Shown here: piece after piece, positions 4,478 to 45,693 of the stretch
Numbering within the stretch: the first letter of the stretch is position 1
How the letters are laid out: each line of letters starts with the position of its first letter
Origin: a virus
Lineage: Duplodnaviria > Heunggongvirae > Uroviricota > Caudoviricetes
IMG/VR virus record: IMGVR_UViG_2711768011_000016
Direction: 5' to 3' (one strand)
Length of the DNA: 45,693 bases
Notes under the pieces: generated by a model
Told to the model about the DNA's origin: nothing
The model's input: the letters and a program-made list of their open reading frames with translations, nothing else
Database searches by the model: none
Made by a program: the position numbers and the translations under genes

Positions 4478-5152
4478 TTAGGCCTTTATTATGTATCTTC
4501 TTGGTTTTCCTGAGAAAATCACTGTACCAATTATAGAGCAATTACCGTTAATCTTAATGTAAGGCTCAGGCCAGTTTGGGTTTAATGCTTTGAGATAACG
4601 CTGTGTTCCATCTTCTATCAACCGCTTGAAGGTGGTTTCGCCTGTATCGTGCATCAATGCAATAACGTCGTCACCGTGGCAGGCAGGGACTTCAGGATCA
4701 ACAAAAATCATGTCTCCCGGGCGGTACTCATCAATCATTGAATCACCAATCACCCGCAAGATATAAGTCATTTCGCCACAGGGTACAGGGCAGGGATAAG
4801 TTTCTGCTGTGCTCAAATCAACCTCAGAATAGCCAACTTCTTTCCATGCTCCGGCCTGTACCCATGATATGACAGGGACTAACGTTATTTGTTTGTTAGT
4901 GATTGAAACGTCAGGTTTTTTTGTGATGTTCGTTGTCTGGTGTTCTTGATCAAGCCATCCGACAGGCAGGTCGAAACATTTTTCGATGTGCCGTGCCATG
5001 CTGTCACCGATATTTTTAGTTGCACCATCTCCCATAAACCTGCTGGTCTGGGTTGGCTCGCGATCAATCATGGTGGCAAAGGAAGAATTCCCGCCAACAC
5101 CATCTCTCAGTTTTCTGGCGTTAGACCGCCGGATGTCATGGACTGTTTTCAT
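4478..5152 (-). CDS. cI: CI-like repressor (HTH plus LexA-type S24 peptidase domain)
   Basis: 224 aa; C-terminal domain has the GDSM serine motif and TFKRL lysine typical of S24 autopeptidases; divergent to a cro-like gene. Confidence 0.8.
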   Translation of the reverse strand: MKTVHDIRRSNARKLRDGVGGNSSFATMIDREPTQTSRFMGDGATKNIGDSMARHIEKCFDLPVGWLDQEHQTTNITKKPDVSITNKQITLVPVISWVQAGAWKEVGYSEVDLSTAETYPCPVPCGEMTYILRVIGDSMIDEYRPGDMIFVDPEVPACHGDDVIALMHDTGETTFKRLIEDGTQRYLKALNPNWPEPYIKINGNCSIIGTVIFSGKPRRYIIKA

Positions 5153-5474: not shown

Positions 5475-6038
5475 ATGAGGCTAACCGTGGGTAAGCATCA
5501 CTGGAAAGTAGAAAAACAGCCTGAGTGGTACGTGAAAGCTGTCAGAAAAACTATCGCGGCGTTGCCGGGGGGTTACGCTGAAGCTGCTGAGTGGCTGGAT
5601 GTAACAGAGAACGCTTTATTCAACCGCCTTCGTGCAGATGGCGATCAGATTTTCCCGCTGGGATGGGCAATGATTTTACAGCGCGCGGCTGGCACTCACT
5701 ACATTGCGGATGCTGTCGCACAGTCTGCTGGTGGGGTGTTTGTATCGCTTCCTGAAATTGAGGAAGTAGAGAACGCCGATATAAACCAGCGCCTGCTGGA
5801 AGTCATCGAACAGATCGGGAGTTACTCAAAGCAGATTCGTTCGGCAATCGAAGATGGGGTAGTGGAGCCACACGAGCAGACAGCAATTAATGATGAGTTG
5901 TATCTGTCAATTTCGAAGCTCCAGGAGCATGCAGCACTGGTCTACAAAATCTTTTGCGCTCCAGAAAAGAGTGACGCCCGCGAGTGTGCAGCTCCGGGCG
6001 TCGTGGCGTTTTGTGTCTGTGGAGAAACTAACGCATGA
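5475..6038 (+). CDS. CII-like / YdaT-family regulatory protein
   Basis: 187-aa ORF immediately after cro; position and composition fit CII/YdaT-like proteins. Confidence 0.4.
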   Translation: MRLTVGKHHWKVEKQPEWYVKAVRKTIAALPGGYAEAAEWLDVTENALFNRLRADGDQIFPLGWAMILQRAAGTHYIADAVAQSAGGVFVSLPEIEEVENADINQRLLEVIEQIGSYSKQIRSAIEDGVVEPHEQTAINDELYLSISKLQEHAALVYKIFCAPEKSDARECAAPGVVAFCVCGETNA

Positions 6039-8406: not shown

Positions 8407-9059
8407 TGAGTAATAAATATTGCCAGGCGCTGGTGGAGCTGCGGAACAAACCAGCCCATGAACTGAAGGAAGTGGGCGATCAGTGGCGCACGCCGGATAA
8501 CATTTTCTGGGGAATTAACACCCTGTTTGGCCCGTTTGTTCTGGATCTGTTCACTGATGGTGATAACGCCAAATGTGCCGCTTATTACACTGCGGAAGAC
8601 AACGCGCTGGCGCATGACTGGTCTGAACGTCTTGCGGAGCTTAAAGGTGCTGCCTTTGGTAATCCCCCGTACAGCCGCGCCAGTCAGCATGAAGGGCAAT
8701 ACATCACCGGCATGCGTTACATCATGAAACATGCCAGTGCCATGCGTGATAAGGGCGGACGCTATGTTTTCCTGATCAAAGCTGCCACCAGCGAAGTGTG
8801 GTGGCCGGAAGATGCAGATCATATTGCTTTTATTCGCGGGCGTATTGGTTTTGAACTGCCTGCCTGGTTTATCCCGAAGGACGAGAAGCAGGTGCCGACA
8901 GGCGCTTTCTTCGCTGGTGCTATTGCTGTTTTCGACAAGACCTGGAAGGGACCGGCAATCAGCTACATCGGGCGCGATGAACTTGAGGCATGTGGTGAGG
9001 CGTTTCTGGCGCAGGTTCGCCAGCAGGCGGAAAAACTGGTCAGGGAGATGGCGGCATGA
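8406..9059 (+). CDS. phage Dam-like DNA N6-adenine methyltransferase
   Basis: NPPY motif (AFGNPPYS) and overall resemblance to the phage Dam family; start overlaps the upstream stop (TAATG). Confidence 0.75.
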   Translation: MSNKYCQALVELRNKPAHELKEVGDQWRTPDNIFWGINTLFGPFVLDLFTDGDNAKCAAYYTAEDNALAHDWSERLAELKGAAFGNPPYSRASQHEGQYITGMRYIMKHASAMRDKGGRYVFLIKAATSEVWWPEDADHIAFIRGRIGFELPAWFIPKDEKQVPTGAFFAGAIAVFDKTWKGPAISYIGRDELEACGEAFLAQVRQQAEKLVREMAA

Positions 9060-9382
9060 CGACGTTAACTCAATGCCAGCAGCAGGTGCTGGATATGCTG
9101 ATTTCTTACCAGAAAGAACGTGGCTTCCCGCCAACCAATCAGGAGGTGGCAACCATGCTGGGATACCGTTCAGTGAATGCAGCGGTGGAACATCTTCGCG
9201 CACTGGAGAAAAAAGGCGTCATCACGATAAAGCGTGGCATGGCCCGGGGTATCACTCTTCATACCGCGGTGAAGGACGACGACAGCGAGGCGGTCGGGAT
9301 TATCCGCTCACTGCTTGCCGGTGAGGAAAACGCCAGGCTGCGTGCAACCCACTGGTTACATGAGAGAGGCCTGAAAGTATGA
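9056..9382 (+). CDS. LexA N-terminal-like winged-helix DNA-binding protein (no peptidase domain)
   Basis: 108 aa; QQVLDMLISYQKERGFPPTNQEVATMLGYRSVNAAVEHLRALEKKG resembles the LexA DNA-binding domain. Confidence 0.5.
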   Translation: MTTLTQCQQQVLDMLISYQKERGFPPTNQEVATMLGYRSVNAAVEHLRALEKKGVITIKRGMARGITLHTAVKDDDSEAVGIIRSLLAGEENARLRATHWLHERGLKV

Positions 9383-13642: not shown

Positions 13643-14695
13643 ATGAAAAATACTGTAAAAATAAACAGTGTTGATTTAATCAACGCTGATTGCCTGCATT
13701 TTATTCAGTCCCTGCCTGATGATTCCATTGACCTGATTGTTACCGATCCGCCTTACTTCAAGGTGAAACCCAACGGTTGGGACAATCAGTGGAAAGGGGA
13801 CGAAGATTACCTTAAGTGGCTGGACCACTGTCTGGCCCAGTTCTGGCGGGTGTTGAAACCTGCCGGAAGCCTTTACCTGTTCTGTGGGCATCGCCTGGCA
13901 TCTGATATTGAGATCATGATGCGTGAACGTTTCAACGTGCTTAACCATATCATCTGGGCGAAGCCGTCCGGACGTTGGAATGGGTGTAATAAAGAAAGTC
14001 TGCGCGCATATTTTCCTGCCACAGAGCGCGTTCTGTTTGCTGAACATTACCAGGGGCCATATCGCGGCAAAAGTGACGGCTATGCGGCAAAAGAAAGGGA
14101 ACTCAAACAGCACATAATGGCACCGCTGATATCGTATTTCAGGGATGCTCGTGCCGAACTGGGTATAACGGCAAAACAAATTGCCGAAGCCACAGGTAAG
14201 AAAAATATGGTTTCCCACTGGTTTGGTGCCAGTCAGTGGCAGTTGCCGAATGAGGCTGACTATCGGAAGTTACAGGCACTGTTTTCCCGTATAGCGGCAG
14301 AGAAGTTTCAGGAACAACAACTGGAACAACCACACCACCAGCTGGTGGCATCTTATGATTCACTGAATCGTAAATATTCTGAATTGCTGGATGAGTTTAA
14401 ATCTCTCCGGCGCTATTTCTCCGTATCAGTCTCCGTGCCTTATACCGATGTCTGGATGCATAAACCCGTTCAGTTCTACCCGGGGAAACATCCGTGTGAG
14501 AAACCGGCGGATATGCTCAGGCAAATAATCAATGCCAGTAGTCGACCAGGTGATCTGGTTGCTGATTTTTTTATGGGATCCGGTTCCACAATAAAAGCAG
14601 CAATGGCGCTGGGGCGTCGGGCCTTAGGTGTTGAGCTTGAGTCAGAGCGGTTTAATCAGACAGTGAAAGAGATAAACGAGCTGGTGGGGAAATAA
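13643..14695 (+). CDS. DNA methyltransferase (N6/N4 family, DPPY motif)
   Basis: 350 aa; LIVTDPPYF motif IV near the N-terminus and a C-terminal AdoMet-binding FFMGSGST motif; no restriction endonuclease gene adjacent. Confidence 0.8.
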
Positions 14696-39566: not shown

Positions 39567-40143
39567 TGGCATTCAGAATGAGTGAACAACCACGGACCAT
39601 AAAAATTTATAATCTGCTGACCGGAACTAATGAATTTATTGGTGAAGGTGACGCATATATTCCGCCTCATACAGGTCTGCCAGCAAACAGTACCTATATT
39701 GCACCGCCAGATATTCCGGCTGGCTTTGTGGCTGTTTTCAACAGTGATGAGGCATCGTGGCATCTCGTTGAAGACCATCGGGGTAAAACGGTTTATGACG
39801 TAGCGTCAGGGGACGCGTTATTTATTTCTGAACTCGGTCCGTTACCGGAAAATGTTACCTGGTTATCCCCGGAAGGGGAGTTTCAGAAGTGGAACGGCAC
39901 AGCCTGGGTGAAGGATACGGAAGCAGAAAAACTGTTCCGGATCCGGGAGGCGGAAGAAACAAAAAACAGCCTGATGCAGGTAGCCAGTGAGCATATAGCG
40001 CCACTTCAGGATGCTGTAGATCTGGAGATCGCAACGGAGGAAGAAAACTCGTTGCTGGAAGCCTGGAAGAAGTATCGGGTGTTGCTGAACCGTGTTGATA
40101 CATCAACTGCACCTGATATTGAGTGGCCTGCGGTCCCTGTTAT
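39566..40143 (+). CDS. tfa: tail fibre assembly protein Tfa (3' end lost in gap)
   Basis: Start overlaps the stf stop (TAATG); 192 codons read before the N run. Confidence 0.8.
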
Positions 40144-40555
40144 NNNNNNNNNNNNNNNNNNNNNNNNNNNNNNNNNNNNNNNNNNNNNNNNNNNNNNNNN
40201 NNNNNNNNNNNNNNNNNNNNNNNNNNNNNNNNNNNNNNNNNNNNNNNNNNNNNNNNNNNNNNNNNNNNNNNNNNNNNNNNNNNNNNNNNNNNNNNNNNNN
40301 NNNNNNNNNNNNNNNNNNNNNNNNNNNNNNNNNNNNNNNNNNNNNNNNNNNNNNNNNNNNNNNNNNNNNNNNNNNNNNNNNNNNNNNNNNNNNNNNNNNN
40401 NNNNNNNNNNNNNNNNNNNNNNNNNNNNNNNNNNNNNNNNNNNNNNNNNNNNNNNNNNNNNNNNNNNNNNNNNNNNNNNNNNNNNNNNNNNNNNNNNNNN
40501 NNNNNNNNNNNNNNNNNNNNNNNNNNNNNNNNNNNNNNNNNNNNNNNNNNNNNNN
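40144..40555. other. assembly gap (run of N)
   Basis: Contiguous N characters. Confidence 1.
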
Positions 40556-40601
40556 TTGTGATATGCCGCAGCAACTTGTCATGGCAGGATACTGCGGCTG
40601 A
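40556..40601 (+). CDS. 3' end of an unidentified CDS interrupted by the gap
   Basis: Open frame reading ...CDMPQQLVMAGYCG then TGA; the stop sits inside a hairpin (gccgcag ... ctgcggc). Confidence 0.25.
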
Positions 40602-40662
40602 TTTGTGAATTTAAATAGTGTGTTTATTGCTTTATATATAAAGGATTTAATGGATTACATAT

Positions 40663-42033
40663 CTATGATATCCCTGAAATGTCCTCTTCAAGCTCTTTTA
40701 CTGATTTCGCAATTTTAAATTTAAATTTTCTCTCTATTTCACTATTGCTAAGTTTTTTTTCATTCTCTTTCCCTATCCACATAGAAACAATTTCTCGTTT
40801 CTGAGATATATGTAGATTGTCAAAGTTAGGTATGTATTTAAAAGTCTCCGCTCTACCCCTGCGGAGTTCATAGAAAGTTTTAATCAAAGACTTTGGTTTT
40901 ATTTCTGATGAAAGGCCGAATCGGCGGATAAGATTATTGATCGTATGATTAACAGCTCGAAGTTGAGCTGTTGACGTTATTTGTGAGAAGTACGATACCC
41001 ATCCCAATCGTTTACCTTCAAACACACATCCCGTAATTCTAAGATTTAGTTTCCACTGACAATATGCAACAGCTCGTTCTTTATCGCGCTTATTTTTAGC
41101 TTGTAGTAGAGCGTGTCTATATGCAGTAAAAATTTTTGCTAAGGATGACTCAAATCTAAGAATGCTCTCATGTTTTATCAATAATTCTCGATTTTTTATG
41201 TGGTAGCCCAAAAAGTTGAAACTTTCATCCAAGCTGCCTACTTTGGATTTTGAGTTCTCTTCATTTAATGGATGTGGGTTTAAATTTAATGATTGAAGCT
41301 TATCAATGATATGAGAAGCTATTTTTGTTGCTTGATATTTTGGTGTTAAAATAAGAATGTCATCAACGTATCGCATGTACCATATGTCATGCATTTTATT
41401 GATTTCATCATCGAAATTAGATAGTGATATTTCAGCTAAAATGTTTGATATCGCTAATCCCTGAGGTACTCCTCTGGTATTATTAGGGATACCTTTGCTT
41501 CCTGTGGTTCCACTTACAGTAGGCACGATTAATGATGATGTTATTAACTGTCTAATTTCTTTTTTTCTAATTTTATTTTTTATTGCATTAATTATCAATT
41601 TATGTTCAATTGAAGGATAGAAACTTTTAAGATCTATTTTTGCATATTCAGCATATAGACTGTTGTTTAATGCTTCTTTCAATGAGTCAATTACTGTATG
41701 TGGTAGTTTTAATCTGGACTTAGGATATATTTCCGTAAGGCATTCACAGAGAGCTCTAAGAGTAATTCTGTCCCTAGCAGTTGGTATGGAAATCTGTCTG
41801 GGTGTAGAGTTAGCGCCTTTAGATATTAATTTTTCTTTATATGCTGTAAATTTGTAATTGCCAGAATTAACCTTTTCAAAAATGAAAGTGATCTCATTTT
41901 TTATTGTCAAATCAAGTTTTGATGGGCGAATCCGATCTATGCCAATCGCTCCTGATTCTTTGATTTTTTCAGAGTATACTTTTAGAAGATTTTTTTTCGA
42001 GAATGACTTTTTAAAAATTCTGCTTGCAGTCAT
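40663..42033 (-). CDS. reverse transcriptase (defence-associated, UG/Abi- or retron-like; family unassigned)
   Basis: RT motifs readable in the translation: RQISIPTARDRITLRAL, IDLKSFYPSI, GVPQGLAISNILAEI, YMRYVDDILIL (YVDD), FLGYHI; about 200-aa C-terminal extension; visibly AT-rich; first ATG at 42033 (TTG at 42039). Confidence 0.8.
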   Translation of the reverse strand: MTASRIFKKSFSKKNLLKVYSEKIKESGAIGIDRIRPSKLDLTIKNEITFIFEKVNSGNYKFTAYKEKLISKGANSTPRQISIPTARDRITLRALCECLTEIYPKSRLKLPHTVIDSLKEALNNSLYAEYAKIDLKSFYPSIEHKLIINAIKNKIRKKEIRQLITSSLIVPTVSGTTGSKGIPNNTRGVPQGLAISNILAEISLSNFDDEINKMHDIWYMRYVDDILILTPKYQATKIASHIIDKLQSLNLNPHPLNEENSKSKVGSLDESFNFLGYHIKNRELLIKHESILRFESSLAKIFTAYRHALLQAKNKRDKERAVAYCQWKLNLRITGCVFEGKRLGWVSYFSQITSTAQLRAVNHTINNLIRRFGLSSEIKPKSLIKTFYELRRGRAETFKYIPNFDNLHISQKREIVSMWIGKENEKKLSNSEIERKFKFKIAKSVKELEEDISGIS

Positions 42034-42562
42034 AGTCAATCCAAAGATATATTAATGGGAGTATATAAAGTGCGGCAGTAATAAATATTCGAAGTAATAT
42101 CCATAAAATAACAATTATTTTTTCTTTTTGTGTGGGGATCCTCGTCTTAAGTCCAACTTGAGTTACCCTTGAAATTTTATCATCTATGTCACGGTGATTC
42201 TCAACCTCATTGAGCAAATTAAAATATTTTTCTTTCTGTTCAAGAGATAACTGTTGACTGGTGGTAATGTCAAAATAGAGTCGCTGTAGTGCAATATAAT
42301 TCCTTCTCATGGCTATTGCTCGACCACGAAAATCTAGGTTAGATACGATCAGAGAAATACCCAGTAGAGCCACTGAAAGTATCGCCGCAACGACATCTGT
42401 ATTATCTCCTAGAACCTTTGGAAATCGCAACGTTACAATTGAAAGTACCGCACTCAATATAGCATACCAAACGAGGATAAATTGAGAGTGTTTTTCAAGC
42501 CATTCTAGTCGATGGTGCGCTTGGATACGTGCTTTATATGTAAACCAAATATTGTCATGCAT
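42011..42562 (-). CDS. multi-pass membrane protein, SLATT-like (putative effector partner of the RT)
   Basis: 183 aa with at least two hydrophobic helices after a short basic N-terminus and another near the C-terminus; 3' end overlaps the RT start. Confidence 0.55.
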   Translation of the reverse strand: MHDNIWFTYKARIQAHHRLEWLEKHSQFILVWYAILSAVLSIVTLRFPKVLGDNTDVVAAILSVALLGISLIVSNLDFRGRAIAMRRNYIALQRLYFDITTSQQLSLEQKEKYFNLLNEVENHRDIDDKISRVTQVGLKTRIPTQKEKIIVILWILLRIFITAALYILPLIYLWIDYDCKQNF

Positions 42563-42784
42563 AAAAGATCCTTTTTAAAAGCGGAAGGGGCAGGATATAT
42601 TGGAACCGTTGAACATCCTGCCCGGCAGGATCAGTGAGCATAAGCTCAACAGTAAAATATTACTGTTCATTATCAGAGCCGCCCTTGCATGCGCAAGAGG
42701 AAAAACCTGCCCCATCCCTTTGAATTATTACAATTTAATGATCTTAAAGTCAATACAAGTGAATGGTGTCCAGAGATGATGAAC

Positions 42785-43033
42785 TTAATGAACAAACCAC
42801 TCGTCAGCAGACTCCCAGGTATCTTTCAGAGTCTCCTGAACAAAAGTTTTAGCTGAATCTTTATCAGCGGTGCGCGTAACAGAAAGGCCATCGTTGCTGG
42901 TGGCTTTTACGATCACTTCTACATCGTCATAACGTTTACTGATGCGTCGGGTTAATTCTTCCTTTAACGCATCCACAGCACCGGTTGGCATTTTAGTCAT
43001 TTTTTCTTTGGCTATGCAGATTTCAATACGCAT
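42785..43033 (-). CDS. dinI: DinI-like SOS-inducible protein
   Basis: 82 aa; MRIEICIAK ... [15 protein letters not shown] matches the DinI family end to end. Confidence 0.75.
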
Positions 43034-43045
43034 AAAAGTCCCCTA

Positions 43046-43098
43046 CACTGTATTTGTATACAGTATTATTTTTAACTGTATGGATAAACAGTGTCAAG
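43046..43098 (-). promoter_or_regulatory. SOS promoter with two LexA boxes upstream of the dinI-like gene
   Basis: CTGT-N8-ACAG boxes at 43046-43065 and 43074-43093; on the minus strand TTGACA-17nt-TAAAAT with the boxes in the spacer and just downstream of the -10. Confidence 0.7.
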
Positions 43099-44191
43099 AG
43101 GTCTTATTTCTGCTCCTTTGGAGTTCTTCAAAACGATTATGTAAAGATTTCGGATACAGTTCGGTATATACCTGCCATAGCACGTTTAATGAACGATGCC
43201 CTGTAACCTGAGCGACTTCCTCAATACTAAAACCAGCCTCAAATAAGCGACTTGCCCCTTCTCTACGCAAATCATGGTATCTCAGATCTTTAATACCTAA
43301 TTTGCTTCTTACCCTCTGAAATCCTGCGGTAACAGAAGTGCTGTTATATGGAAAAATGAATTCTGATTTTTTGGGTTGTCGCTGGACGATATCCCAGGCT
43401 TCCCCAAGCAAGGCAACTTTCATATGGTTGCCTTCCTTTTTACGTGGATCTTTCCTGTCTCTTACTAGTATAGATTTTTGTTCCTGGTCGAGATCTTCCC
43501 ATCGTAACCGGCATACTTCTCCGATTCGCATACAGGACCACACAGAAAATTTGAGGATATCAACGAACGGAATTTTTGAGCATTTATGAGTAGATCGTTG
43601 TTGAAGGCCTTCAATGAGCATGTTCAGTTCATCAGATGCTGGTCTACGATTACGACGGTTTGATTTACCAATCAAACCGAGTTTAAGTAGATATGGACGA
43701 GCGCTTTTCGCCGGGTTTGATGTGTAATTGATTCCGTATACAGGTTTTGCCGCATCCAGAACACTGCCAAGATAACTAACATCGTGGCTGACTGTTGCTG
43801 GGCCTGCACCAGCGTTGTTTCTTAGCCTGCAATGTTCAATTACGTCATTTTCTGTCAGTTCAGATAGTTTGATCGCGGAGATGTCACTATCCATAAGCAG
43901 TTCCAGCACATATCTTTTAGTACGGCCTGCTTTACCTCCGGCATTTGGGTCATTTAAATATTTGTGTAGTAAGTCACGGACTGTAAGTCCGTCAACAGCA
44001 TTTGATGATGGAATGCCATATAGATCTAATTCCATCACTTTCTGTGCGCCCCATGTTTTGGCATGAGCATGTTTAGGGAATGTTTTGCTTTCCCTGTAAG
44101 TGATAACACCTTTTTCTTTGATAATCACATTACAGCGATAGCGTGGTGTGCCATCGGATTTTAGTCGTTTCTCTATGTTATAGTACGCCAT
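43094..44191 (-). CDS. int: tyrosine integrase (dusA-associated phage integrase)
   Basis: 365 aa with the C-terminal catalytic region (HDLRR ... LNVLWQVY); GAGG RBS; directly abuts the 5' end of dusA. Confidence 0.85.
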   Translation of the reverse strand: MAYYNIEKRLKSDGTPRYRCNVIIKEKGVITYRESKTFPKHAHAKTWGAQKVMELDLYGIPSSNAVDGLTVRDLLHKYLNDPNAGGKAGRTKRYVLELLMDSDISAIKLSELTENDVIEHCRLRNNAGAGPATVSHDVSYLGSVLDAAKPVYGINYTSNPAKSARPYLLKLGLIGKSNRRNRRPASDELNMLIEGLQQRSTHKCSKIPFVDILKFSVWSCMRIGEVCRLRWEDLDQEQKSILVRDRKDPRKKEGNHMKVALLGEAWDIVQRQPKKSEFIFPYNSTSVTAGFQRVRSKLGIKDLRYHDLRREGASRLFEAGFSIEEVAQVTGHRSLNVLWQVYTELYPKSLHNRFEELQRSRNKTS

Positions 44192-44279
44192 TACACGACC
44201 TCGTTATTTCGGGTTCCCATAAAGCGTGGGAACCTGTGCGGGAACCTAACGCGAGAAAAATAGCCTGAAATGTTCAAAA

Positions 44280-45317
44280 ATGCACGATAATCCTGAAACA
44301 CAGAAAACTAATCAAACCAGCGTGATGCCTGAAAAAACTGGCGCTTACTGGAGTTCTCGGTTTAGCATTGCTCCTATGCTCGACTGGACGGACAGACATT
44401 GCCGCTATTTCTTGCGTCTGCTTTCCCGCAATACGTTGCTGTATACCGAAATGGTGACCACAGGGGCGATTATTCACGGTAAAGGTGATTACCTGGCGTA
44501 CAGTGAAGAAGAACATCCGGTAGCGTTGCAACTCGGCGGTAGCGATCCGGCGGCGCTGGCACAGTGTGCGAAGCTGGCAGAAGCGCGTGGATATGATGAG
44601 ATCAACCTGAATGTCGGCTGCCCGTCTGACCGGGTGCAGAACGGCATGTTTGGTGCGTGTCTGATGGGTAATGCGCAGCTGGTTGCCGACTGCGTGAAAG
44701 CGATGCGCGATGTGGTGTCGATTCCAGTGACGGTGAAAACGCGTATTGGCATCGATGACCAGGACAGCTATGAATTTCTCTGCGATTTCATCAACACCGT
44801 TTCCGGCAAAGGCGAGTGTGAGATGTTTATCATCCACGCACGTAAAGCCTGGCTTTCGGGGTTAAGCCCGAAAGAAAACCGTGAAATCCCGCCACTCGAT
44901 TATCCGCGTGTGTATCAACTGAAGCGTGACTTTCCGCATCTGACAATGTCGATTAACGGTGGTATCAAGTCGCTGGAAGAGGCCAAAGCACACCTGCAAC
45001 ATATGGATGGCGTGATGGTCGGGCGCGAGGCGTATCAGAATCCGGGTATTCTGGCGGCGGTAGACCGGGAGATCTTTGGTTCCTCGGATACCGATGCCGA
45101 TCCGGTGGCGGTAGTGCGCGCCATGTATCCGTACATTGAGCGTGAACTCAGCCAGGGGACGTATCTCGGCCATATTACCCGGCATATGTTGGGCTTGTTC
45201 CAGGGTATTCCTGGCGCGCGGCAGTGGCGGCGTTATTTAAGTGAAAATGCCCATAAAGCGGGTGCAGACATTAATGTGCTGGAACACGCGCTCAAACTGG
45301 TGGCGGATAAGCGTTAA
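44280..45317 (+). CDS. dusA: tRNA-dihydrouridine synthase A (host gene, 5' end likely prophage-derived)
   Basis: 345-aa ORF; from about residue 30 onward it matches E. coli DusA as I recall it ([16 protein letters not shown] ...). Confidence 0.9.
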
Positions 45318-45399
45318 CTTTTCACCAAAAAGTAGTCAAATTCACCACGCCCTGCGCACCGTCGCGGGGCGTTTTGCTGTTAAATCAATAGATTATTTT

Positions 45400-45416
45400 T
45401 GGCATGATTCTTGTAA
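45400..45416 (+). promoter_or_regulatory. candidate sigma-54 (-24/-12) promoter of pspG
   Basis: TGGCATGATTCTTGTAA resembles TGGCAC-N5-TTGCA, about 35 nt upstream of the pspG start. Confidence 0.4.
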
Positions 45417-45450
45417 TGCCAGCAAGAGATTTCATATTTGGGAGAGCATC

Positions 45451-45693
45451 ATGCTGGAACTACTTTTTGTGATTGGCTTTTTTGTCATGCTGATGGTCAC
45501 CGGCGTTTCGTTGCTGGGCATTATCGCCGCGCTGGTTGTGGCGACGGCCATTATGTTCCTCGGCGGTATGCTGGCATTGATGATTAAGTTGCTGCCGTGG
45601 TTACTACTGGCGATTGCGGTGGTGTGGGTTATTAAGGCGATTAAAGCACCAAAAGTGCCGAAATATCAGCGTTATGACCGCTGGCGTTACTAA
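45451..45693 (+). CDS. pspG: phage shock protein G
   Basis: 80-aa very hydrophobic protein (MLELLFVIGFFVMLMVTGVSLLGIIAALVV ...) with GGAGAG RBS, downstream of dusA as in E. coli. Confidence 0.85.
   Translation: MLELLFVIGFFVMLMVTGVSLLGIIAALVVATAIMFLGGMLALMIKLLPWLLLAIAVVWVIKAIKAPKVPKYQRYDRWRY

Follow-up and report, generated by a model that had tools for sequence, protein, structure and literature searches.

A DRT10 reverse transcriptase cassette nested in the LexA-type dinI unit of a lambdoid prophage, and its candidate exposure to SOS read-through

The sequence considered here (the window, by which we mean the whole 45,693-nt stretch of IMG/VR record IMGVR_UViG_2711768011_000016) includes one end, at the attachment site, of a lambdoid prophage that resembles mEp460 and is inserted at dusA. 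On the reading that we favour, and think rather probable, this end carries a composite 'moron', in which an SOS-regulated dinI unit encloses the defence system DRT10 and SOS-induced transcription can run on from dinI into the defence genes. Since no terminator separates dinI from DRT10, and the junction between them is present in 182 of the 188 complete E. coli genomes that carry the cassette, such read-through is structurally likely, and DNA damage would probably raise transcription of DRT10 as well. Its likeliest origin is one insertion into a slot that takes varied cargo.

The first gene of the unit (42785-43033, minus strand) specifies a protein of 82 aa that bears the PGAP name 'DinI-like family protein'. 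Chromosomal E. coli dinI is LexA-regulated. The first-pass annotation had called this ORF a DinI homologue, and three comparisons agree with it: the Pfam DinI profile (PF06183) is matched at 70.9 bits against a cut-off of 24.2 (1.1e-19), with residues 16-80 corresponding to profile positions 1-63 of 63; alignment with E. coli DinI (1GHH) is full-length (residues 1-81; E 3.7e-13, about 46% identity); and phrog_189 is matched at 5.7e-31. The acidic C-terminal helix that contacts RecA, TWESAD(E/D)WFV, is conserved, aligning to ETWESADDWFV of 1GHH. As the prophage CI (4478-5152) possesses an S24 autocleavage domain (Peptidase_S24), it is possible that the prophage DinI modulates the RecA-dependent cleavage of CI, and the signal that fires the dinI promoter (PdinI) should also induce the prophage. 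In Gifsy prophages, deletions of dinI were without effect on induction (PMC3121763).

Immediately upstream of dinI, and co-directional with it, is the gene for a dusA-type tyrosine integrase (43094-44191, minus strand), whose stop codon TGA (43096-43094) falls within the -35 hexamer of PdinI. This hexamer, TTGACA (43092-43097, minus strand), is a perfect match, and the promoter is also annotated in the mEp460 GenBank record. The -10 element (43068-43074, minus strand) can be taken as TAAAAA with a 17-nt spacer or as AAAAAT with an 18-nt spacer; the promoter had previously been written TTGACA-17-TAAAAT, which is correct for the -35 element and incorrect for the -10, where one A had been dropped. 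Two LexA boxes had also been proposed to overlap this minus-strand promoter, and both were found there by a palindrome search and by the scoring of 20-mers. The distal box, AACTGTATGGATAAACAGTG (43074-43093, no strand assigned; core 43076-43091, CTGTATGGATAAACAG), runs from the end of the -35 element across the spacer and takes in the first base of the -10, while the proximal box, CACTGTATTTGTATACAGTA (43046-43065, likewise unstranded; core 43048-43063, CTGTATTTGTATACAG), begins 3 nt past the -10 and, short of the ribosome-binding site, covers the point (near 43061) at which transcription is expected to begin. This second box matches TACTG(TA)5CAGTA at 17 of 20 positions and the distal box at 15 of 20.

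The palindrome CTGT-N8-ACAG occurs four times in the whole 45.7-kb window against 0.65 expected, a number reached in none of 100 shuffles. When all 20-mers were given an approximate score resembling a heterology index, trained on some 20 LexA sites of E. coli, the two top-scoring 20-mers of the window were the two dinI boxes (2.95 and 5.09, where training sites scored 0.4-9.6); 50 shuffled windows yielded none that scored as well. Both boxes could be recognised in all 14 of the other dinI modules that were read out, some with substitutions: in phi330 (L020) both are degenerate, the distal one having CTGG for CTGT and the proximal one a gap of 7 nt instead of 8 between its half-sites, and the distal box of L025 has CCAG at its end. 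PdinI is therefore a LexA-type promoter with its boxes placed on the promoter core, at which the binding of LexA is presumed by analogy with Gifsy dinI. That the palindromes might be non-functional as LexA sites, leaving dinI constitutive, is scarcely credible given their rank among window and shuffled sites, their position over the promoter core, their recognisability in all the dinI modules examined, at several attachment sites, and the LexA control of the homologous Gifsy promoters.

Two other features of the window may be mentioned in connection with LexA. A third good LexA-like site, TACTGTAAAAATAAACAGTG (13651-13670), scores 5.28, much as the distal box of dinI does; it overlaps codons 3-9 of an ORF for a DNA methyltransferase (13643-14695, plus strand), and could be either a working site or a chance product of the coding sequence. 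Also in this prophage, in its nin region, a 108-aa protein (9056-9382, plus strand) has a LexA DNA-binding domain and nothing else (Pfam LexA_DNA_bind, 2e-19); it matches phrog_362, 'transcriptional repressor', and is without the S24 cleavage domain. A non-cleavable LexA-like protein of this kind could act on boxes such as those of PdinI during lytic growth.

The genes downstream of dinI, previously referred to simply as an RT and membrane-protein module, are those of DRT10, which was described in 2025-26 as comprising a UG17 reverse transcriptase (RT) and a SLATT_5 membrane protein. The two-transmembrane SLATT_5 effector (42011-42562, minus strand) was recognised by Pfam (SLATT_5, 1.3e-28) and by PADLOC (RTasSLATT, 1.5e-56). 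The RT gene (40663-42039, minus strand) matches the full-length PADLOC RT_UG17 profile (1.1e-158) and Pfam RVT_1, and its translation includes the YVDD motif in the context RYVDDILIL. The two genes overlap by 29 nt, and the order SLATT then RT is that of subtype A. DRT10 is tripartite, the third component being a structured ncRNA of 137-143 nt with its own promoter, and the RT makes protein-primed, tandem-repeat cDNA (Tang et al., 2025, PMC12632851; Sanchez-Nieto et al., 2026, bioRxiv 10.64898/2026.04.29.721553); both the synthesis of tandem-repeat cDNA and phage defence have been shown experimentally for other E. coli DRT10 homologues. The system makes ssDNA with free 3' ends, tolerance of which needs ExoI, and the known inputs to its activation threshold are constitutive cDNA synthesis, ExoI and an SSB-like trigger from phage. 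Near-identical E. coli RT and SLATT proteins are listed in the part of the Tang et al. (2025) dataset that was searched, and the exact ncRNA of the window and its LexA box were not found in the searched part of the supplement.

Where, then, is the third component? The 222-nt gap between dinI and the SLATT gene had been taken in the first-pass annotation as empty, which it is not: it holds the promoter of the RT module and a structured ncRNA. The promoter (42724-42753, minus strand) reads TTGACT, 18 nt, (TG)TAATAAT; it is 100% conserved among the E. coli lineages, and 11 loci from six genera share a -10 motif, TGTAnAAT, ahead of the ncRNA. The ncRNA itself (putative ends 42581-42717, minus strand) is about 137 nt long, and agrees in position and size with the published DRT10 ncRNA. 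An alignment of the window gap with 10 further DRT10 loci, from Xenorhabdus, Photorhabdus, Buttiauxella, Pseudomonas and Stutzerimonas, gave 29 consensus pairs, nine of them with compensatory changes (alignments A1 and A2, 11 loci): a basal stem, in which GCAGG (42710-42706) pairs with CCUGC (42594-42590), is followed by four internal stem-loops and a tail, UUCCGCUUUU. Folding of the single sequence reproduced this architecture. With both promoter and ncRNA of its own, DRT10 here appears not to depend on PdinI. Rfam 15 has no family for the DRT10 ncRNA: a scan of 40000-45693 at E<=1 otherwise returned only a match to IS009 (see below) and two chance miRNA matches.

A template loop can be placed at 42595-42614 (minus strand), with the sequence GUUCAACGGUUCCAAUAUAU. 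It offers two candidate A-B-A' arrangements, CAA-CGGUUC-CAA (a 9-nt repeat) and GUUC-AACG-GUUC (an 8-nt repeat), and the corresponding loops of relatives conserve (U)CAA-N6-(U)CAA; the repeat cDNA is thus predicted to be the complement of CAACGGUUC or GUUCAACG. If +1 of the ncRNA is at 42717, then C116, A117 and U119 would match the critical positions of Eco3DRT10. The spacer also has inverted repeats, GGGGCAGG and CCTGCCCC, that suggested a retron msr-msd; this was rejected because the RT is of the UG17/DRT10 kind by PADLOC and the RNA fits the architecture of a DRT10 ncRNA. No match to the published Eco1-type ncRNA was found in E. coli genomes by blastn. A Gifsy-like antirepressor ORF downstream of dinI was also considered: the sole ORFs in the spacer are of 40-46 aa and lie within the ncRNA, so that none is plausible and the spacer is better understood as covarying RNA. 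In the approximately 20 nt between the ncRNA and the SLATT gene, a sequence scan revealed no promoter-like site.

The manner in which DRT10 lies within the dinI unit became evident from ten modules that lack it (those of mEp460, Lys8385Vzw, 2H10, phi330, CP-1639 and PhiR63_1, and of E. coli prophages at dusA, prfC and yecD). In all ten, the cargo-free unit consists of the promoter with its two LexA boxes, dinI, a 3'UTR of about 65 nt, and a strong terminator hairpin, which in mEp460, 2H10, PhiR63_1 and L028 (a DRT10-free dusA prophage) is followed by five T residues to make a classic intrinsic terminator. In the window, a 2.18-kb DRT10 cassette (42784 to about 40601) exactly replaces the UTR between the dinI stop codon and the hairpin. 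At the left edge (42754-42784, minus strand), homology to the cargo-free modules ends exactly at the stop codon of dinI, and there is no hairpin and no T-run. Likewise, similarity to a phage collection starts exactly at the dinI stop (42785), and extends to the -35 element (43097-43102) in the dinI-only modules of Stx phages, 2H10 and CP-1639, and on through the dusA-type integrase in mEp460 and its relatives. At the right edge (40565-40598, minus strand) is a hairpin, GCCGCAG...CTGCGGC (-17.5 kcal/mol), whose stem is the homologue of the terminator stem in the cargo-free units, being nearly identical to that of L028, and the same hairpin follows the RT gene in every DRT10 carrier examined. 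Because the UTR is missing and the hairpin reappears past the RT gene, it follows that DRT10 is nested in the dinI transcription unit, between stop codon and terminator. When 50,697 phage records were searched by tblastn with the RT, none matched at 1e-20, and this lineage of the DRT10 cassette has been seen in prophages only.

The first-pass annotation had seen no clear intrinsic terminator between dinI and the RT module, a point borne out by two scans. One, with a terminator-scan tool, found no minus-strand terminator in 40400-44400; the other found none from the dinI stop to the SLATT start, while detecting the dinI terminators of mEp460 and 2H10, which served as positive controls. With the UTR replaced by the cassette and the terminator now downstream of the RT gene, the case for read-through is stronger than the annotation had made it.

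The tail of the displaced hairpin varies among alleles. It is CATATCAC, with no T-run, in the window, L003, L023 and L025, and TTTTTAT in L024 and L026 (in which DRT10 is at prfC) and in L028. Since the T-run has been lost from the window allele, transcripts from PdinI and the DRT10 promoter may run antisense into the convergent late genes tfa and stf. The tfa region has two peculiarities of its own. A run of 413 Ns (40143-40555) has identical flanks in CP016546, where the interval measures about 12 nt and, with the sequence AACGATTACTCC, forms the end of tfa, from which it appears that the Ns are a mask or an assembly gap rather than a hidden sequence of 413 nt. Further in, the Rfam IS009 family (RF02111) is matched at 40000-40107 (plus strand) at 117.7 bits, against a gathering score of 117; the match is inside the 3' part of this tail-fibre assembly gene, and is clipped at the edge of the scanned region.

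These features can be assembled into a scheme in which regulation of the locus has two layers. In an undamaged lysogen, LexA would occupy both boxes, and DRT10 would be transcribed from its own promoter, giving constitutive cDNA synthesis of the kind reported for DRT10. Upon DNA damage, activated RecA (RecA*) would drive self-cleavage of LexA, PdinI would fire, and DinI would be made; RNA polymerase, meeting no terminator, could proceed via the ncRNA into the SLATT and RT genes, adding an SOS-inducible layer to the expression of DRT10. The absence of a promoter between the ncRNA and the SLATT gene means that the 3' end of the ncRNA must already be leaky, so it should let PdinI transcripts through too.

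The most serious competitor to this scheme, which we regard as appreciably less probable but by no means negligible, is that dinI and DRT10 are adjacent without being coupled: DRT10 would be expressed from its own promoter only, and PdinI transcripts would be terminated, occluded or non-functional, the junction being simply the scar of an insertion and SOS leaving defence unaltered. There are several ways in which read-through might come to nothing. Some transcripts could end at the basal stem of the ncRNA with its tail UUCCGCUUUU, Rho may act in the 222-nt untranslated stretch, and a 5'-extended ncRNA might be non-functional. The conserved promoter and ncRNA of DRT10 fit such independence, as does the independent transcription of the published ncRNA. 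Set against this are the lack of any terminator from dinI to the cassette, the displacement of the ancestral one past the RT gene, and the consideration that expression of SLATT and RT needs read-through of the ncRNA 3' end in any case.

The distribution of the cassette also bears on the question. It is present in 188 of 5426 complete E. coli genomes (about 3.5%), at 96-100% identity, whereas dinI modules are found in about 30% of E. coli genomes (about 1750) and in many lambdoid and Stx phages, those without DRT10 being some ten times commoner than those with it (1758 vs 182 genomes). The carriers have their prophages at three attachment sites, dusA, prfC and yecD, with an identical junction sequence, so that the junction seems to have arisen once and then to have spread by recombination among lambdoid prophages; that there is a single junction allele is a point in favour of adjacency without coupling. 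So is the variability of the slot that separates dinI from the tail-fibre genes, which is empty in some prophages and in others occupied by a hypothetical gene, an invertase with ynaE, a serine acetyltransferase or an SDH protease. PADLOC gave no matches for three other cargo genes found there; the slot takes variable cargo without being a demonstrable hotspot of defence.

Outside E. coli, no DinI homologue was found within 2.4-4 kb upstream of the SLATT gene at 14 loci of other genera or at most of the diverged IMG/VR loci, and only two non-E. coli loci had a LexA box upstream of DRT10, about 2 kb away. In two more distant IMG/VR loci, with an RT of 78% identity, a LexA box does accompany a DinI homologue of 44% identity (L053, 6974-7238; L054, 5768-6032); this dinI is 1.4-2.6 kb downstream of the RT gene and on the same strand, the reverse of the order in the window.

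Within E. coli, the arrangement has begun to fall apart in places. In the L023/L025 lineage, comprising at least 54 E. coli carriers of DRT10, dinI is a pseudogene (5708-5927 in both L023 and L025), with a +1 frameshift, an in-frame TAG and an 8-nt deletion at the stop codon; it differs from the window dinI at 12.4% of positions, while the RT gene differs at about 3%. The -35, -10 and LexA boxes of PdinI are still recognisable in this lineage (divergence from the window 4.6% in L023 and 12.3% in L025, which, with just two lineages compared, allows no firm conclusion on selection), and this is a point against adjacency without coupling. In some genomes, IS2 has come to lie between PdinI/dinI and an intact DRT10; in L056 (about 918-2260), the only one in which the site was mapped, it is 5 nt past the dinI stop (window 42779-42783), with a target duplication GTTCA. 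Four hits (H18-H21) are insertion alleles that part PdinI from an intact DRT10, the element in H18 being ISKox3.

Because dinI and DRT10 are 0 nt apart, the conservation of their linkage cannot be read as selection, and this zero-distance linkage, the decay of dinI and the absence of the arrangement from other genera all argue for an evolutionary accident, whether or not it has regulatory consequences. SOS coupling is probably an add-on and not an intrinsic requirement of DRT10, since other genera mostly lack an upstream dinI or LexA box, dinI has decayed, and IS2 has separated the two.

Might the arrangement have been turned to use? SOS may conceivably boost DRT10 at the time when all resident lambdoid prophages are induced, making of it a weapon against co-induced or superinfecting rivals, or there may be a feedback loop, in which cDNA would activate RecA, leading through cleavage of LexA and firing of PdinI to more DRT10, with DinI tuning the RecA filament. 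We think either of these unlikely; were it so, DRT10 would be the first RT of a defence system to come under SOS control. More improbable still is a partnership at the protein level, according to which DinI is kept beside DRT10 because the repeat ssDNA would load RecA, so that DinI would tune the SOS signal or protect the lysogen. The free 3' ends of DRT10 ssDNA, the need for ExoI, the conserved RecA-binding helix of the window DinI and the E. coli adjacency itself are what might be expected of such a partnership, but it is difficult to reconcile with the pseudogenes and their faster divergence, with the DRT10 systems elsewhere that have no upstream dinI, and with the great excess of dinI modules lacking DRT10; moreover, the publications name just three DRT10 components as required for defence, never dinI.

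The nested unit, to return to it, means that the DRT10 lineage of about 3.5% of complete E. coli genomes sits within an SOS-controlled unit, making DNA damage a candidate input to DRT10. The published descriptions of DRT10 make no mention of dinI, LexA, SOS or RecA, and nothing relevant was found in a search of the literature for effects of SOS or mitomycin at RT-SLATT loci. Natural controls exist in the alleles uncoupled by IS2, those with a dinI pseudogene and those with a T5 terminator, and promoter context may matter when 'native flanks' of DRT10 are cloned. Examples of the first are in CP082087, CP182198 and OW848980, of the second in CP049085 and CP054940, and of the third, at prfC, in CP122685; further natural carriers are E. 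coli O25b:H4 (CP015085), strain 6409 (CP010371) and O177:H21 (CP016546). Phages sensitive to DRT10 include Bas18 and Bas52. If SOS is without effect, the locus is one more case of the accretion of cargo in a slot like that of the lambda b region.

How does the locus compare with known systems? Its nearest relatives are dinI modules that lambdoid and Stx phages carry (among them mEp460 gp21, CP-1639 dinI, 2H10 and YYZ-2008), which have the same two-box promoter and an 82-aa protein of 96-100% identity in the same place, between tail-fibre genes and attachment site, with, in mEp460, the same dusA-type integrase; these modules retain the UTR and hairpin after dinI, where the window has the DRT10 cassette instead. 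Chromosomal E. coli dinI encodes a full-length homologue that shares the acidic C-terminal helix, and the window gene differs from it in being prophage-borne, with two strong boxes and no terminator of its own.

The closest regulatory parallel is the dinI-antirepressor-irsA operon of the Gifsy prophages (Lemire et al., 2011, PMC3121763), where, as in the window, a LexA box lies over the promoter of a prophage dinI that is first in a longer unit. Gifsy dinI genes are SOS-induced experimentally (PMC3121763, PMC8072944), by 4.5- to 23-fold with nalidixic acid (PMC8072944), and SOS reaches the downstream cargo through PdinI (PMC3121763). The Gifsy promoter has one LexA box and the window two, and the Gifsy cargo is a small antirepressor, whereas that of the window is a defence system with its own promoter. 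The Gifsy pairing of an antirepressor downstream of dinI with a non-cleavable repressor is absent from the window, whose CI has an S24 autocleavage domain, so that induction, unlike that of Gifsy, needs no antirepressor.

The published DRT10 systems (Tang et al., 2025; Sanchez-Nieto et al., 2026) have the same order of ncRNA, SLATT_5 and UG17 RT, with overlapping genes, and an ncRNA with a basal stem, four stem-loops and a template loop, as in the window; they are described as autonomous modules, whereas the DRT10 of the window sits behind an SOS promoter. The mEp460 dinI module with its promoter, the SOS control of Salmonella prophage dinI, and DRT10 itself are thus all already known. What appears to be new is the nesting of DRT10 inside an SOS unit, which would be a modest variant of a known arrangement.
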